Positions 2,937-50,924 of a stretch of DNA of 64,000 nt are shown one piece after another; the stretch's first letter is position 1; the number at the start of each line of letters is the position of its first letter. A program made the position numbers and the translations under genes. The DNA comes from Escherichia phage arall. The notes beneath the pieces are model-generated. The model was not told the origin of the DNA. It worked only from the letters and a program-made list of their open reading frames with translations, and made no database searches. The stretch lies in the sequence record MN850584.1; one strand, 5' to 3'.

Positions 2937-3106
2937 GTTATTATGTTGTACCTTATGCCAATAAGTGGAGAGTAAGAGAAACTTGTTTTCTGTTCTCCTG
3001 GTGGGCTACATTCGGAGATGGCTGTGGAAATGATACAGGGAAGCCTGTAGAGTATGACACAAAAGAAGAATGTGAACAGTGGATAAAATTAACACAAAGA
3101 TGTTGA
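2933..3106 (+). CDS. small Cys/Trp-rich protein (57 aa)
   Basis: ATG overlaps stop of upstream gene (ATGA); below ORF-track size cut-off; translated by eye. Confidence 0.35.
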   Translation: MSYYVVPYANKWRVRETCFLFSWWATFGDGCGNDTGKPVEYDTKEECEQWIKLTQRC

Positions 3107-3619: not shown

Positions 3620-3826
3620 GAGTAGTAAGTAAGGTATAAAGAGTATATAGTTAGTTATAGAGTTAGTAACATTACATATACTCTTTCCATGTATAACATG
3701 GAATATTCTCTACCTCGCTATCGCTCGGTATATAAGATTAGGGTAGCATGTTTTTTACGAAAAGTAAAACTGTTTATACCGATTGATAGCAGGTTTTTAA
3801 TAGATTCTATCTGTGAGGAGTAGAAA

Positions 3827-12488: not shown

Positions 12489-13050
12489 TCTCCTCTAAAA
12501 TAGGCTTAATAAATTCGAAAATTTGTTTTTTACTTTTATCTCGAATATTAAAACAAGGAACATTAAACTTTTTAGCCAACATCCAAGCTGTTCTTGTACC
12601 ACCTAAAGGATCTCCATTTTTATCTGTATTTGCACAAGCTAAAAGAAAACAAGATGGTTTTGGATTCTCAAGATCTCTTCCAAGAACTTGGTGGATATTT
12701 CTTTGATGTAATTTTTTAGCACCTTGAGATAATCTGTCCCAAGCTGGATGCAATTCTTTTGCATATTGCAAGGTTAGAGCATAGTTTACACTATCTGGTC
12801 TGTCAAGAACAATAACCTCTCCCTCTATTTCATTACCTTTAAACGAGAGCCAAGGGATGTATATTTCTTTCTTTGTATTGTTCCCACTATCATATACCCC
12901 GCATTCAAATGCGGAATCTGCACCTTCTGCTTTACCAGATCGCAAAATGAACCATGTAGATAACCATTTTGCAACAGATACCATAGTATCCCATTCTTCG
13001 TCTGTAATATCTCTGCTACCAACACCTGTGTAGAATAAATCGCTCATGGT
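12469..13050 (-). CDS. Rossmann-fold SLOG/DprA-like nucleotide-binding protein
   Basis: ORF track trimmed to M28 (RBS AAGGAGAA); YTGVGSR...RSGKAEGADSAF resembles the GxGxR...G(A)xGxD signature of Smf/DprA/LOG folds. Confidence 0.45.
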   Translation of the reverse strand, partial: TMSDLFYTGVGSRDITDEEWDTMVSVAKWLSTWFILRSGKAEGADSAFECGVYDSGNNTKKEIYIPWLSFKGNEIEGEVIVLDRPDSVNYALTLQYAKELHPAWDRLSQGAKKLHQRNIHQVLGRDLENPKPSCFLLACANTDKNGDPLGGTRTAWMLAKKFNVPCFNIRDKSKKQIFEFIKPILEENGLVQK

Positions 13051-13057
13051 TTTCTCC

Positions 13058-13378
13058 TTAACAAGTAATATTGGGAGTAACAATTGGATTAACAATTGGA
13101 GTAATAGGGTACGTAAACCAAGGGCTTCCAATTTCCCAAGGATAATAAGGTCTACGAGGATCGTATGGAGGAGTTACTTCAGGCTTTTTCCAAATCTCCG
13201 CTAATTGTTTCTTCCATTTATCCCTTGCTGTCTCATTATCTTCATCCAACTGTTCATCATTATCTTTTATTTCTGGTTTTGGAAATAAAAGCTCTTTGAC
13301 TAATTCAACATCTTCCGTCTCAATAGTAGTTTCTTTCGTAAGTTCTCCTACTGTTTCTTTAATTGTGATTTTATACAT
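13058..13378 (-). CDS. hypothetical Pro/Glu-rich protein
   Basis: 106 aa ORF. Confidence 0.5.
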   Translation of the reverse strand: MYKITIKETVGELTKETTIETEDVELVKELLFPKPEIKDNDEQLDEDNETARDKWKKQLAEIWKKPEVTPPYDPRRPYYPWEIGSPWFTYPITPIVNPIVTPNITC

Positions 13379-47379: not shown

Positions 47380-47408
47380 TTGACATTTACTTAGTTTTTT
47401 GTTATAGT
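47380..47408 (+). promoter_or_regulatory. sigma70 consensus promoter (TTGACA-N17-TATAGT)
   Basis: near-consensus hexamers ending 12 nt upstream of tRNA-like gene at 47420. Confidence 0.55.
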
Positions 47409-47419
47409 CGTTATGAAAA

Positions 47420-47501
47420 CGGGGTGTATCTCACCTGACTTCTAATCAGGCGTTAACCGAGTAATTGGAGTATGCAGGTTCGAATCCTGTCACCCCGGCC
47501 A
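47420..47501 (+). other. atypical tRNA-like gene with anticodon hairpin TCT (Arg-type) and no recognisable D-arm
   Basis: perfect acceptor CGGGGTG/CACCCCG + CCA, T-arm GCAGG-TTCGAAT-CCTGT, anticodon arm CCTGA-CTTCTAA-TCAGG; only 7 nt (TATCTCA) where D-arm should be; 23-nt variable region with GNRA-capped stem. Confidence 0.4.
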
Positions 47502-47519
47502 AAAAGTTTTAAAAACTAC

Positions 47520-47549
47520 TTGACAAGCAAGATAGTTTTATGTTAGATT
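47520..47549 (+). promoter_or_regulatory. sigma70-like promoter (TTGACA-N17/18-TTAGAT)
   Basis: hexamers upstream of tRNA-Ser. Confidence 0.4.
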
Positions 47550-47564
47550 TAAAGTATGATAACT

Positions 47565-47654
47565 GGAAGGTAGGGCGCAGCGGTGCGCAACCAGGTTTGA
47601 ACCCTGGCCCATTGTAGCGATACGGTGATGGTTCGACTCCATTATCTTCCTCCA
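47565..47654 (+). tRNA. tRNA-Ser (anticodon TGA)
   Basis: acceptor GGAAGGT/ATCTTCC, anticodon arm CCAGG-TTTGAAC-CCTGG, long variable arm, T-loop TTCGACT, CCA. Confidence 0.7.
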
Positions 47655-47660
47655 AATTCA

Positions 47661-47825
47661 ATGAGTGATTTTATGAATTATAAAACTATTGGACAGGTTG
47701 TTACCGGAGTTAAGATTGTAAATAATAAAGTTGTTTATGAGTATTCTAATCTTCAACAATCTGAAGATGGTAAGAATATTCGTATGGTAAAAGCAGAACA
47801 AAAAGATTCCGGTTGTTTTGAATAA
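47661..47825 (+). CDS. small hypothetical protein inside tRNA cluster
   Basis: ORF track 47625..47825 trimmed to first ATG after tRNA-Ser 3' end; no clear RBS. Confidence 0.3.
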   Translation: MSDFMNYKTIGQVVTGVKIVNNKVVYEYSNLQQSEDGKNIRMVKAEQKDSGCFE

Positions 47826-47833
47826 TTAAGAAC

Positions 47834-47919
47834 GGTAGATTGGTGAAATGGTAGCCACAACAGTTTGCTAAACTGTCGTCGGAAACGGCGTGTAGGTTCA
47901 AGTCCTACATCTACCGCCA
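47834..47919 (+). tRNA. tRNA-Ser (anticodon GCT)
   Basis: acceptor GGTAGAT/ATCTACC, anticodon loop TTGCTAA, long variable arm, T-loop TTCAAGT, CCA. Confidence 0.7.
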
Positions 47920-48054
47920 AGTTATCTTTAATGTAGCTTGTAATCTTACTTTAGCAGAGTAAATCTTCGGCAAGTGGCGGTAACCACTTTACCGATACCC
48001 CAATACTTCATAGCTAAGTGCCGCAAACACTGGCTATTTTAAAGATAATTTTAT

Positions 48055-48129
48055 ACATCGTTAGCCAAGCGGTAAGGCACTTGACTTTTAATCAAGGGAG
48101 CGAAGGTTCGAATCCTTCACGATGTACCA
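48055..48129 (+). tRNA. tRNA-Lys (anticodon TTT)
   Basis: acceptor ACATCGT/ACGATGT, D-arm GCC-AAGCGGTAA-GGC, anticodon loop CTTTTAA, T-loop TTCGAAT, CCA. Confidence 0.75.
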
Positions 48130-48134
48130 AACAC

Positions 48135-48221
48135 GTAGGTATCGCATAGCGGCAATTGCTGGAGACTGTAAATCTCCTGCCCTTCTGGGCTTCGTTGGTT
48201 CGAGTCCAACTACCTGCACCA
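48135..48221 (+). tRNA. tRNA-Tyr (anticodon GTA)
   Basis: acceptor GTAGGTA/TACCTGC (U2.G71), anticodon arm GGAGA-CTGTAAA-TCTCC, long variable arm, T-loop TTCGAGT, CCA. Confidence 0.7.
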
Positions 48222-48228
48222 AATTAAA

Positions 48229-48313
48229 GATGGATTGGCCTAGTGGTTGGGCGACGGACTGTTAATCCGTGAACGAAAGTTCTAGCAAGGTTCAAATCCT
48301 TGATCCATCGCCA
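48229..48313 (+). tRNA. class-II (long variable arm) tRNA with anticodon GTT (Asn codons) in a Ser/Tyr-like body
   Basis: acceptor GATGGAT/ATCCATC, 3-bp D-stem GCC/GGC, anticodon arm ACGGA-CTGTTAA-TCCGT, 15-nt variable arm GAACGAAAGTTCTAG, T-loop TTCAAAT, CCA. Confidence 0.5.
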
Positions 48314-48320
48314 GAATTAT

Positions 48321-48397
48321 GGACTTGTAGAGTTAAGGTAAAACCCCAGTCGCCAAGAGGCTTCTGGAATTGCAGGTATCGAATCCTGTCGAGTCCA
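48321..48397 (+). pseudogene. degenerate tRNA-like element (possible tRNA pseudogene)
   Basis: acceptor-like GGACTTG/CGAGTCC and T-arm-like GCAGG-TATCGAAT-CCTGT (8-nt loop); no D-arm or anticodon arm found. Confidence 0.3.
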
Positions 48398-48403
48398 AGT
48401 ATT

Positions 48404-48478
48404 GCTCCTATCGTATAACGGCTATTACGGTTGCCTTGTAAGCAACTTATCAGGGTTCGAGTCCTTGTGGGAGCACCA
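48404..48478 (+). tRNA. tRNA-Thr (anticodon TGT)
   Basis: acceptor GCTCCTA/TGGGAGC, anticodon arm GTTGC-CTTGTAA-GCAAC, T-loop TTCGAGT, CCA. Confidence 0.75.
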
Positions 48479-48495
48479 ATTTTAACTCTAAAGGA

Positions 48496-48825
48496 GTGTA
48501 TGTGACAGAAAAAGAGTTAGAGAAATATTTTAATATCAATGTTTTCGATGGTTTTGATGATATTGAAGATGTTGAAAGATATTATGAAGTAGAGTTAGAT
48601 AAGGATAACATTGTAATTCTTTCTGCCACTTATGATTGTGCATATTATGAAGGTGAATCTCACGTTTATTTTTATGATATGAAAACATCTTTGTTTTATG
48701 AAGTACACGCATATCATTGTTCTTGTTATGGTTTAGAAGGTCAGTGGGAACCTGAAGAAATAGGTGATTTGGATTTTACTATTGCATATCTAAACAGACG
48801 TGGTGCATCTACTATTTTAAAATAA
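48496..48825 (+). CDS. hypothetical acidic protein inside tRNA cluster
   Basis: 109 aa; GTG start at RBS AAGGAG (alternative GTG 48502). Confidence 0.5.
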   Translation: MYVTEKELEKYFNINVFDGFDDIEDVERYYEVELDKDNIVILSATYDCAYYEGESHVYFYDMKTSLFYEVHAYHCSCYGLEGQWEPEEIGDLDFTIAYLNRRGASTILK

Positions 48826-48839
48826 ATATCAAAAGCCTC

Positions 48840-48869
48840 TTGACAAAGTGGCTAATAATATGTTAGAGT
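48840..48869 (+). promoter_or_regulatory. sigma70-like promoter (TTGACA-N18-TAGAGT)
   Basis: hexamers upstream of tRNA-Gly. Confidence 0.4.
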
Positions 48870-48880
48870 AATATTGTTAA

Positions 48881-48955
48881 GCGGGTATAGTGTTAATTGT
48901 AGCATATGAGGTTTCCACCCTCCAGGTGCAGGTTCAAGTCCTGTTACTCGCTCCA
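48881..48955 (+). tRNA. tRNA-Gly (anticodon TCC)
   Basis: acceptor GCGGGTA/TACTCGC, anticodon loop TTTCCAC, T-loop TTCAAGT, CCA. Confidence 0.65.
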
Positions 48956-49302
48956 AGATTATTTAAATGGAATCGCTAGAGAAAATTTCTCTTTTCGCTC
49001 ATGGTTTTCTCCTTCAAACTCTAGCGGTTCTTTTTAAGTGATTTTTAGTTTATTGGAGATTCACTGCCTTAGTATGAGCTAAAATCGAGGAGCCATCGAA
49101 CTGTCTGATTAATGATTTGCGAATCATTATAGTTTTAAGACCCCGGCAGTTTTATGGTGTACCTCTTGAATGTGAATGATGACGGGTTTATGGTTATCCT
49201 GGTCGTTAAATATCCAAAAACCTATGTTCCCCTTGATGGCTTGCGCAGGCAATGCCAATAAGTCCTGCATTTTCATTTAAAAGAGAATTTATAATGGAAA
49301 AA

Positions 49303-49380
49303 GATGAACTTAAGTATGCTAAGCCTCTGGCTTCTGCTGCACGAAAAGCAGTTCGTCACTTTGTGGTAACACTGAAGTAA
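49303..49380 (+). CDS. very small ORF (25 aa) in structured noncoding stretch
   Basis: ATG 9 nt after AAGAGAA; MEKDELKYAKPLASAARKAVRHFVVTLK; speculative. Confidence 0.2.
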   Translation, partial: DELKYAKPLASAARKAVRHFVVTLK

Positions 49381-49385
49381 TTTAT

Positions 49386-49460
49386 TGGAGATTAGCCTAG
49401 TGGGAAGGCAACGGCCTTTGAAGTCGTGATGACTAGGTTCGATTCCTAGATCTCCAGCCA
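49386..49460 (+). tRNA. tRNA-Gln (anticodon TTG)
   Basis: acceptor TGGAGAT/ATCTCCA (U1-A72), anticodon arm ACGGC-CTTTGAA-GTCGT, T-loop TTCGATT, CCA. Confidence 0.75.
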
Positions 49461-49467
49461 AGATTTA

Positions 49468-49543
49468 CAGTGCGTAGCGCAGTTGGTAGCGTGGGAGCTT
49501 TGGATGCTTCGGGTCGCAGGTTCGAGTCCTGCCGCACTGACCA
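49468..49543 (+). tRNA. tRNA-Pro (anticodon TGG)
   Basis: acceptor CAGTGCG/CGCACTG (C1-G72), anticodon loop TTTGGAT, T-loop TTCGAGT, CCA. Confidence 0.75.
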
Positions 49544-49548
49544 AATTT

Positions 49549-49623
49549 GCAGAGATAGCTGAGACGGATTAGTGCTACCCTGAAAAGGTAGAAAGGATGG
49601 ATCGTTACCATCTCTCTGCACCA
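49549..49623 (+). tRNA. tRNA-Phe (anticodon GAA), non-canonical T-loop ATCGTTA
   Basis: acceptor GCAGAGA/TCTCTGC, anticodon arm CTACC-CTGAAAA-GGTAG, T-stem GATGG/CCATC, CCA. Confidence 0.6.
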
Positions 49624-49700
49624 AATAACACCATCCAAGGAGTAGACTTGGTTAACTGTCAATAGCACATTGAGGCTTCTTACAGTGGTGTACTTATTAT

Positions 49701-49785
49701 GGCTAAGTGGTGGAATGGTATACACGATACGCTTAGAACGTATTGCCCCAAGGGATTGTGAGTTCGAGTCTCACCTTAGCTACCA
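49701..49785 (+). tRNA. tRNA-Leu (anticodon TAG)
   Basis: acceptor GGCTAAG/CTTAGCT, anticodon arm ATACG-CTTAGAA-CGTAT, long variable arm, T-loop TTCGAGT, CCA. Confidence 0.7.
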
Positions 49786-49800
49786 AATTATTACAGATTG

Positions 49801-49879
49801 TGCGGGATAGAGGAGTCTGGTCGTCCTCGCCAGTTTCATATGCTGGAGATCATCGGTTCAAATCCGATTCCCGCCTCCA
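49801..49879 (+). tRNA. tRNA-Met/Ile2 (anticodon CAT)
   Basis: acceptor TGCGGGA/TCCCGCC (1-72 mismatch), D-arm GAGG/CCTC, anticodon arm CCAGT-TTCATAT-GCTGG, T-loop TTCAAAT, CCA. Confidence 0.6.
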
Positions 49880-49956
49880 ATAAATACCTCCCTTCTGGTG
49901 TAATGATTAAATTGCATTGACACTTCAAGGAACTCATAGCCGGGTAGATTTAAAAG

Positions 49957-50020
49957 AGTATGGTACTCAATATGGCTCCAAACCATAGATCAAGGGGTTC
50001 GATTCCTCACCTTGCTGCCA
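49957..50020 (+). other. short (64 nt) tRNA-like gene with anticodon hairpin CCA (Trp-type), no D-arm
   Basis: anticodon arm TATGG-CTCCAAA-CCATA, T-arm AGGGG-TTCGATT-CCTCA, 3' CCTTGCT-G-CCA pairs with AGTATGG (6/7); only 7 nt (TACTCAA) in D-arm position. Confidence 0.35.
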
Positions 50021-50025
50021 ATTAT

Positions 50026-50101
50026 TGTGGTATCGTACAGATGGTTAGTACACTCGACCGATAATCGAGAAACAACGGTTCGACTCCGTTTACCACGACC
50101 A
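50026..50101 (+). tRNA. tRNA-Ile (anticodon GAT)
   Basis: acceptor TGTGGTA/TACCACG, D-arm GTAC/GTAC, anticodon arm CTCGA-CCGATAA-TCGAG (C33), T-loop TTCGACT, CCA. Confidence 0.65.
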
Positions 50102-50213
50102 AACTCCGTGCCAGCGGTGTCTTCGAAGAACAAGCCTAGTTCCTTCTGAGATGGAGGGGTGCGACTCCTTAACGCACATACCACTACTACTAAATACTTA
50201 TCAGGAGATATTA

Positions 50214-50482
50214 TGTATACTTTAAAAGTAATTCGCAAGTTTCCTCAAGAAGAGGAAGTAAGAATTTATAACACCGTACCCTTCGTAGTAAATGAAGAAG
50301 AATTCTTTTATTGCTTAGAAGATGAAGTAATTATTCAATATCATTGGGAAGGTTACGACAGACAAGATGGTGTTGTAGCTTCTGTGCTTGCTGGTGATAG
50401 AGTGTTATTCATTCACAAGACTGAATCAGCATATCTAATGAATGATAAAGGACAAACTGTTAAAGTAATTAACAGACTATAA
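50214..50482 (+). CDS. hypothetical protein
   Basis: ORF track 50159..50482 trimmed to ATG 50214 after AGGAG. Confidence 0.55.
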
Positions 50483-50494
50483 AGAATTTTATAA

Positions 50495-50520
50495 AAGCCT
50501 CCTTTTTGGAGGTTTTTATT
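50495..50520 (+). terminator. rho-independent terminator
   Basis: hairpin GCCTCC-TTTTT-GGAGGT followed by TTTTTATT. Confidence 0.65.
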
Positions 50521-50587
50521 ATCTATAAAATAAAGATCTTTACAAAACGTATAAAATATGTTATCCTTAAGTAAGGAGGTGCATATT

Positions 50588-50878
50588 ATGCCTAAATTGA
50601 AAAGAGGTCGAGGTAGACCTACAGCCGAAATGCAACAGATTTATGCTATGGATGCTGCACAGGCGCAAGTAAAAGAAATTTTTGCTGGTCGTTATTTAGA
50701 TGCTATGCGTTACATTGCAGATCTTGTTGTAGATGAAAAGGCTTCTGCTAATATTAAGTTGACTGCTTCTAAGATCATCAAAGAACAAGTAGAAGAATGG
50801 CTGGAAGAACATTATGAATCTATGGAAGAAGAAGATATTCTTCCAGAAAATTCTCCCCCTCAAAAAATCGTTATCTAA
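50588..50878 (+). CDS. hypothetical DNA-binding-like protein (KRGRGRP motif)
   Basis: ORF track 50558..50878 trimmed to ATG 50588 after GGAGGTG; AT-hook-like PKLKRGRGRPT. Confidence 0.5.
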   Translation: MPKLKRGRGRPTAEMQQIYAMDAAQAQVKEIFAGRYLDAMRYIADLVVDEKASANIKLTASKIIKEQVEEWLEEHYESMEEEDILPENSPPQKIVI

Positions 50879-50924
50879 TTCTCCTCTCTTGGGAACTTTG
50901 TTCCCCCTCTCCTTGTTAATTAAC

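Follow-up and report, generated by a model that had tools for sequence, protein, structure and literature searches.

The transfer RNA (tRNA) cluster of Escherichia phage arall (MN850584.1) holds, between its tRNA-Gly and tRNA-Gln genes, a spacer that can fold into several hairpins, and the question raised by this locus is whether the spacer is a structured RNA gene of the phage itself. We analyzed the spacer within a 64 000-nt stretch of this genome (the window), whose coordinates are used throughout and in which the spacer occupies positions 48956–49385. An original prediction, made from the sequence alone, had described it as a noncoding stretch with three hairpins and a small open reading frame (ORF), and proposed that it might encode a small stable RNA, as in T4-type tRNA regions, or a regulatory leader. 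We found that two unrelated parts make up the spacer, a native conserved hairpin and a patch of T-even phage DNA (Table 1). The small-stable-RNA idea was reasonable for the first ∼90 nt, which form the native hairpin, but not for the remaining ∼330 bp, which are the T-even insert. Taken together, the locus is very probably explained by a native conserved RNA hairpin followed by a recombined T-even fragment that is probably a tolerated passenger.

The spacer is surrounded by a cluster of about 15 plus-strand tRNA genes detected with ARAGORN and Rfam. The hairpins and the absence of a long ORF in the original prediction were both confirmed, in that every one of the three named hairpins was found in the sequence and the longest plus-strand ORFs in the spacer, where none above 60 aa had been claimed, were 43, 42 and 35 aa. 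Its dimensions required revision: the length is 430 bp and not 340 bp, the inverted repeat given as 9 bp (CGCTAGAG/CTCTAGCG) comprises 8 bp and is the core of a 12–13-bp inner stem, and the ORF given as 25 codons has 28. The fold of the whole spacer had only a moderate excess of stability (z = −2.35, with 2 of 100 shuffled sequences equally stable). The Rfam/Infernal scan that had been proposed as a check matched only tRNAs; using Rfam release 15, nothing else reached the gathering score across the scan, and three matches obtained at E-values of up to 10 in 48700–49700 were at chance level, with 10.7–15.8 bits against thresholds of 34–86. The prediction had not mentioned a 13-bp direct repeat, TTTATTGGAGATT, or the insertion polymorphism of the 331 bp that this repeat brackets.

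Table 1. Positions of the features in and around the Gly–Gln spacer
Feature	Position	Strand	Basis or remarks
tRNA-Gly(UCC)	48881–48955	+	ARAGORN; Rfam tRNA model, 51.9 bits; left edge of the spacer
Native spacer hairpin, 25 bp, interrupted	48957–49043	+	Folding and covariation
Outer stem of the native hairpin	48957–48967 paired with 49033–49043	+	
Inner stem of the native hairpin	48969–48981 paired with 49019–49031	+	Apical loop of ∼37 nt
Near-invariant loop core TTTTCGCTCATGGTTTTCTCCTTC	48992–49015	+	Invariant alignment columns
T-even insert, 331/332-bp unit with flanking repeats	49049–49393	+	Alignment to insert-less relatives
Left copy of the 13-bp direct repeat TTTATTGGAGATT	49049–49061	+	Hybrid junction: native spacer to the left, T-even DNA to the right
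rIII-30.9 intergenic region with 30.9 ribosome-binding site and start codon	49062–49297	+	ATG at 49294–49296; alignment to AR1/RB27
T-even structured RNA element	49087–49165	+	Long-range stem enclosing an AATGATT-TGCG-AATCATT hairpin (49111–49128)
GCAGG (49245–49249)...CCTGC (49264–49268) hairpin, followed by ATTTTCATTT	49245–49278	+	Just 5′ of the T-even 30.9 ribosome-binding site
Chimeric 28-codon ORF MEKDELKYAKPLASAARKAVRHFVVTLK	49294–49380	+	30.9 start codon in frame with RIII residues 56–82 of 82
Right copy of TTTATTGGAGATT	49381–49393	+	Final 5 nt of the leader plus initial 8 nt of the tRNA-Gln gene
tRNA-Gln(UUG)	49386–49460	+	ARAGORN; Rfam tRNA model, 61.4 bits; right edge of the spacer and recombination target

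The T-even insert and its junctions

The window region was 99% identical to phi92 and other Justusliebigvirus phages (Stephanstirmvirinae), and the whole query was covered in 16 records only. Approximately 16 of the 61 Justusliebigvirus records carry the insert and about three quarters lack it. In insert-less relatives such as alia, the match is split into two pieces spanning 370 bp compared with 701 bp in the window, and the Gly–Gln spacer is 100 bp long. The extra DNA amounts to 331 bp in the window and in phi92, and to 375 bp in the A150 group.

Searched alone, the insert matched the rIII/30.9 locus of more than 600 records of T4-like phages with 95–99% identity. When it was aligned with RB51 and AR1, its two halves proved to be in swapped order, that is, circularly permuted. 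The T-even order is the last 83 nt of rIII, TAA, TTTATTGGAGATT, the intergenic region and the ATGG of the 30.9 start, whereas the order in the window is TTTATTGGAGATT, the intergenic region, ATGG fused to the rIII tail beginning with AAAAAGATG, TAA, TTTATTGGAGATT and tRNA-Gln. With the permutation undone, the phi92 copy was identical to those of Tequatrovirus AR1 and RB27 at 332 of 332 positions, and the window copy differed from them by two substitutions, at 49074 and 49237. The internal junction (ATAATGG/AAAAAGATG) lies inside a GG (49296–49297) common to ...CAGGAAAAAG in rIII and ...ATGGCAAAAC in 30.9. A 100-nt probe across this junction matched contiguously only in Justusliebigvirus and as two separated pieces in T-evens. 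A 23-mer across it occurred in two viral contigs, both Justusliebigvirus, and in none of the metagenome contigs searched, and the insert unit was absent from 5426 Escherichia coli genomes and from plasmids.

Both the donor and the empty recipient site contain a single copy of the repeat TTTATTGGAGATT, which in the donor comes immediately 3′ of the rIII stop codon. Since the donor has the 13-mer at the matching position, the repeat is a shared homology and not a target-site duplication, and since its right copy supplies the 5′ end of tRNA-Gln, this tRNA gene is intact. Similarity between T-evens and tRNA-Gln beyond the 13-mer was not significant (549 of 2000 shuffled sequences scored as high) and thus gave no support to a decayed tRNA in T-evens. 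The rIII tail belongs to a complete 82-aa gene in every T-even compared and about three quarters of the Justusliebigvirus records are without the patch; the transfer is therefore placed in the direction from T-even to Justusliebigvirus. On these alignments, a T-even origin of the insert is well supported, and the 100% identity marks a very recent DNA exchange between two unrelated groups of virulent coliphages, both of which are present in phage-therapy collections.

Among the window, phi92, PD06 and a metagenomic contig, the insert differed by 0–3 substitutions per 345 nt while the 2-kb flanks of the same genomes differed by 1–5%, and the insert must thus be much younger than its backgrounds. 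Between phi92 and PD06, for example, there were 0 differences in 345 nt of the insert as opposed to 54 in 1914 nt and 59 in 1716 nt of the two flanks. In the flanks, carriers were no closer to each other than to non-carriers. The insert appears either to have moved among these backgrounds by homologous recombination or to have been repeatedly homogenized against T-evens. The A150 copy has the same permuted junction but contains other T-even alleles, including a PST-type 44-bp insertion and ime09/slur02-type variants, indicating later gene conversion from different T-even partners.

Two further observations concern these genomes. The records of the A150 group (MG065639.1 and the sister records A145, C3 and A110a), in which the insert is a mosaic of other T-even alleles, are entered as ‘Campylobacter phage’ (UNVERIFIED), yet they are Justusliebigvirus nearly identical to coliphages and their host label is doubtful. 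In the flanks of the insert within the tRNA cluster (47400–50900), left and right distances rank the phages differently, phi92 being nearest to A150 on the left and far from it on the right, which indicates frequent recombination inside the tRNA cluster among Justusliebigvirus.

The arrangement most likely arose in a mixed infection, in which a T-even segment would have been circularized or tandemly duplicated via illegitimate joining at a GG(N)AAAA microhomology and would then have recombined with a phi92-like genome at the 13-bp identity TTTATTGGAGATT, located at the 5′ edge of tRNA-Gln. The product would be of the Campbell type, consisting of repeat, intergenic region, rIII tail and repeat, with tRNA-Gln preserved; its topology is that expected from a single crossover of a 331-bp circle with the recipient at TTTATTGGAGATT. 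The same product could result from a double crossover with a T-even tandem duplication or from break repair with two template switches, and the sequence is compatible with all three routes. The insert would later have spread among Justusliebigvirus lineages through homologous recombination, with one lineage recombining again with other T-evens.

Mosaicism between virulent phages by illegitimate or short-homology recombination is well known and includes T4-type tandem duplications at microhomologies. The insert resembles such mosaicism in being a discrete foreign patch with junction identities of 13 bp and 2 bp, near-identical to its donor and polymorphic among recipients. It departs from the usual case in that the donor (Straboviridae) and the recipient (Stephanstirmvirinae) are unrelated myovirus groups, and in that the fragment contains no complete gene and is circularly permuted, implying a circle, a tandem duplication or multiple template switches. 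The order of repeat, insert and repeat with a reconstituted tRNA gene is also similar to Campbell integration of temperate phages and islands at tRNA genes. Unlike in that system, however, no integrase is involved, the repeat is at the 5′ end of the tRNA whereas att sites are typically at the 3′ end, the inserted 331 bp are non-mobile DNA and both phages are lytic. As an event, this is ordinary phage mosaicism. Its scar is unusually clear and slightly unusual, and the two junctions and the permutation make it informative in pointing to a circular, duplicated or template-switching intermediate.

Contents of the insert and signs of decay

Most of the insert, from 49062 to 49293, is the T-even rIII-30.9 region itself, with 99–100% identity and including its covariation-supported stem-loops; in contrast to its original setting, in the window it is embedded in a tRNA operon and detached from both rIII and 30.9, with first signs of decay. 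In T-evens, conservation of this intergenic region across Tequatrovirus, Mosigvirus and Gaprivervirus is striking, yet 1-nt indels are tolerated among these genera, and the region is thus noncoding. Across the three genera it is more conserved than the neighboring rIII codons. Right after CTTGAATGT we also noted an insertion hot spot, at which T-evens have 0, 44 or ∼155 extra bp; no tRNA-like or known RNA genes were found in the 44-bp and 155-bp variants. The T-even region had no Rfam match.

The structured element at 49087–49165 folds in the window with −24.5 kcal/mol (z = −2.44). Its T-even consensus structure, evaluated with RNAalifold and by counting pairs, has 25 pairs with 99.5% of the cells paired, and compensatory changes at 4 of the 25 pairs support a conserved structured RNA; only 1 of 500 shuffled alignments reached this covariation and slid controls had at most one compensatory pair. 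The enclosed hairpin is AU-rich and differs from the GC-rich stem of an intrinsic terminator. The GCAGG/CCTGC hairpin is invariant in all of the sampled T-even genera and hence uninformative for covariation, and the terminator scan made no call for it. The second and third hairpins are therefore conserved RNA features of T-even phages and not of this tRNA operon. When conservation and covariation were examined as the original prediction had proposed, only the native hairpin proved to be retained with compensatory changes in the phage's own relatives, whereas the conservation of the other two hairpins belongs to T-even phages.

Neither a sigma-70 promoter nor a terminator passed the scan within the insert, and there was no terminator in the whole of 48956–49385. 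A promoter candidate, TTGAAT-17-TATGGT, was rejected as it is split by insertions in other T-evens.

The chimeric ORF descends from rIII at the nucleotide level, 83–84 nt (49297–49380) being identical to the 3′ end of AR1/RB27 rIII. Its product matched PHROG 1457 (lysis inhibition accessory protein) at profile positions 60–86 of 86 only (E = 7.6e-12), and it is not a full-length RIII, which would be ∼82 aa long and match the profile end to end. A 42-aa version of the ORF is annotated in RefSeq/GenBank as phi92 gp113 (2954–3082 in the phi92 locus and 49252–49380 in the window), a ‘lysis inhibition; accessory protein’, and this label has been copied to PD06 and SD2. The upstream ATG at 49252 used for gp113 was unsupported, a 1-nt indel being found in Mosigvirus between the two ATGs. 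Phi92 gp113 is a gene fragment fused to foreign upstream sequence and not an RIII homologue, and the propagated annotation ‘rIII lysis inhibition accessory protein’ should be corrected to a 27-codon fragment with a foreign start codon.

In the A150 lineage, a 1-nt deletion alters the frame of the fusion ORF, and both of the window-specific substitutions fall, in our reading of the alignment, at positions that are paired in T-evens. The frameshift and the two pair-affecting substitutions hint that constraint on the insert is relaxed in the recipient.

The native hairpin and its loop

The native hairpin is present in all Justusliebigvirus irrespective of the insert, as well as in Phapecoctavirus (phAPEC8 and ESCO5), Klebsiella phages (KP13-26 and FKP3), Citrobacter phage Tr1 and an uncultured metagenomic contig. 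As RNA, the hairpin folded with −27.3 kcal/mol (z = −4.39, the value for the first 94 nt of the spacer), and none of 200 shuffled sequences was as stable. Covariation was evaluated in an unfitted MAFFT alignment of seven distinct sequences from five Stephanstirmvirinae lineages. For the 25 pairs of the hairpin, 97.6% of the cells were paired and 9 pairs were changed on both sides, and these compensatory changes across independent lineages support a conserved structured RNA; none of 500 shuffled alignments reached the same level and slid controls had at most two compensatory pairs. By our count, the pair table contains about 25 G·U cells when read on the plus strand and 2 on the minus strand, and because of this bias the folded molecule is taken to be the RNA of the tRNA strand. 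No Rfam family matched the hairpin. Together with the T-even rIII-30.9 element, this tRNA-cluster hairpin of Stephanstirmvirinae makes two covariation-supported RNAs that are absent from Rfam, and we found no description in the literature of the insertion, the native hairpin or the T-even intergenic structure, nor a published transcriptome of a Stephanstirmvirinae phage.

A covariance model detected one copy of the hairpin per genome, and paralogues were not found in the window or in the compared loci. In the model matches, only a few nucleotides at most consistently separate the end of the hairpin from the start of the next tRNA, which is tRNA-Gln in Justusliebigvirus and Phapecoctavirus and a tRNA-Glu of 87–89 nt in the other lineages. 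In the window, the T-even insertion separates the hairpin from the next tRNA and breaks this usual adjacency. The tRNA-Glu(UUC) of 87–89 nt is unusually long; it was found right after the hairpin in the Klebsiella, Citrobacter and metagenome relatives (695–783, 692–780 and 3667–3754 in the respective loci) and is absent from E. coli Justusliebigvirus and phAPEC8.

The tRNAs downstream of the hairpin have no promoter of their own, and although runs of U follow the hairpin, its loop of ∼37 nt differs from that of an intrinsic terminator (3–8 nt). We infer that the hairpin is transcribed along with the tRNAs and then released or cleaved during precursor processing; RNase P could cleave at its 3′ side and the 25-bp stem would be suited to RNase III. 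Among possible roles, the likeliest are an element for processing or stabilizing the tRNA precursor and a small RNA derived from the spacer that displays the invariant loop.

Within the loop, the 18-mer CTCATGGTTTTCTCCTTC is identical in all of the lineages compared. Its reverse complement is AAGGAGAAAACCATG, which is the most frequent combination of ribosome-binding site and ATG in the window; the same motif was found at real gene starts at 1493 (+) and 13059 (−). Over 20 nt, the loop (48994–49013, +) is perfectly complementary to the start region of a dprA-like gene, covering its ribosome-binding site and initial codons (13040–13059, −, with ATG at 13046). We rejected antisense control of this gene, since its ribosome-binding site is not conserved in FKP3 or ESCO5, whereas the loop is invariant there, and the complementarity is probably a coincidence arising from the shared consensus. 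Nor was there a host target among core E. coli genes, the only match being of 23 nt (E = 2) to an accessory gene present in 512 of 5426 genomes. Two candidate coding readings were also discarded. Mini-ORFs started on the minus strand from the ribosome-binding site and ATG in the loop would have products that differ between lineages (MSEKRNFL, MSEKRKFSNIPV, MSKRESFLATLY and others), and the G·U bias favors the plus strand; on the plus strand, a 24-aa ORF at 48967–49041 had no PHROG match and, in Tr1, has lost its start codon and contains a stop codon.

In E. coli, small RNAs are also derived from the spacers of tRNA operons, an example being the 3′ external transcribed spacer of leuZ, which sponges other small RNAs. 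The native hairpin resembles this RNA in its location in a transcribed spacer of a tRNA precursor and in having a conserved single-stranded loop that could pair with RNAs. On the other hand, the best target candidate of the hairpin, the dprA-like ribosome-binding site, is not conserved and no conserved target was found in core E. coli.

Competing explanations

In its recipient, the insert is most likely carried as a tolerated passenger that is co-transcribed with the tRNAs, and not as a functional small-RNA gene or regulatory leader. Several points weigh against our combined explanation of the spacer. The persistence and spread of the insert in diverged Justusliebigvirus backgrounds could also reflect a benefit, and the A150 frameshift comes from UNVERIFIED records in which a sequencing error is possible. 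Our searches of viral contigs, metagenome contigs and the phage collection yielded no circle or tandem-duplication intermediate, and break repair with template switching would yield an identical product. The explanation also leaves the invariant loop of the hairpin unaccounted for, and both the processed RNA proposed for the hairpin and the passenger proposed for the insert are inferred. The proposal that the tRNA cluster has in the whole spacer a small stable RNA of its own, in the manner of the T4 species 1 and 2 RNAs (rnaC and rnaD), or a regulatory leader, is in our judgment unlikely. In its favor, the hairpins exist, covariation gives strong support to the first of them, there is no conserved ORF and the region lies in the tRNA transcription unit, downstream of a promoter-like site. 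Like rnaC and rnaD, which adjoin tRNA-Arg in T4, the spacer is located in a tRNA cluster and flanked by tRNA genes of the same strand, and the native hairpin is a structured non-tRNA RNA whose ends could be defined by tRNA-processing enzymes. However, the hairpin is not homologous to either T4 RNA: it has no tRNA-like T-arm, being a simple 25-bp hairpin with a large invariant loop, the spacer had only 7–8-nt chance matches to rnaC and rnaD in blastn (E of at least 1.6), its covariance model scored at most 14 bits across the T4 tRNA region, and neither an Rfam family nor a tRNA-like domain was found. Moreover, about three quarters of the spacer is T-even DNA that is missing from most close relatives, and the presence/absence polymorphism and T-even identity refute a native RNA for 49049–49380.

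The captured T-even module might instead be functional, conferring an advantage in mixed infection if the 28-aa peptide with the C-terminus of RIII disturbed T-even lysis inhibition or the RIII-S1-RegB circuit, or if the structured RNA acted as a decoy. The cleavage motif of RegB is GGAG. The ribosome-binding sites of this phage are of the AAGGAG type, the fusion is exactly in frame with the 30.9 ribosome-binding site retained, and across genera no part of RIII is more conserved than the retained tail. Ribosomal protein S1 is a binding partner of RIII, and RIII prevents the activation of RegB, an enzyme that cuts inside the Shine-Dalgarno sequence of T4 early mRNAs (PMC9409239). The insert has also spread over diverged backgrounds and has been kept homogeneous with T-even alleles. 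We nevertheless regard this function as improbable, given that the ORF is frameshifted in the A150 lineage, that both window-specific substitutions break T-even base pairs, that most Justusliebigvirus lack the insert, that an accidental in-frame join has a one-in-three chance and that an ability of the 27-residue tail to bind S1 or the T holin is conjecture. Slightly less doubtful, though still a speculative suggestion, is that the native hairpin belongs to a new class of phage small RNAs cut from a tRNA precursor, whose loop, antisense to the preferred Shine-Dalgarno-AUG, would bind initiation regions or a conserved protein to tune translation, and that, separately, the T-even patch would be kept because competing T-evens would be disturbed in mixed infection by the RIII-tail peptide or the RNA structure. 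An autonomous mobile element, such as a miniature transposon or a tRNA-Gln intron with the 13-bp repeat as a target-site duplication, would account for the perfect flanking repeat, the presence/absence polymorphism and the site at a tRNA gene, but it is highly improbable: the 13-mer already follows the rIII stop codon in the donor and was not created on insertion, the element is a permuted piece of an ordinary T-even gene and intergenic sequence, every carrier has it at a single site with no other copy in the window, E. coli genomes or plasmids, and neither an Rfam intron or ribozyme match nor a transposase or endonuclease ORF was found. Lastly, T-evens are often co-isolated, and their nearly 100% identity to the patch is what would be expected if T-even reads had been chimerically joined to a phi92-like assembly. 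We give this artefact hardly any credence, since the identical permuted junction and site recur in 16 records from about 12 separately named phages (including phi92, PD06, PD114, PD211, muut, AV123, SD2, ESCO9, phiWec187 and the A150 group) and in a metagenomic viral contig, and a chimera would not reproduce the exact permutation with an intact tRNA-Gln.

Two minor features were observed elsewhere in the tRNA cluster. The promoter-like site lies just 5′ of tRNA-Gly at 48840–48869 (+) and consists of TTGACA, an 18-nt spacer and TAGAGT with an upstream TG (10 of 12 matches to the sigma-70 consensus); it is likely the promoter for the Gly-to-Ile half of the cluster. Between tRNA-Leu and tRNA-Ser, the region at 47420–47498 (+) scored 38.6 bits with the Rfam tRNA model (gathering score of 29) without an ARAGORN call, and may be an extra or degenerate tRNA gene.

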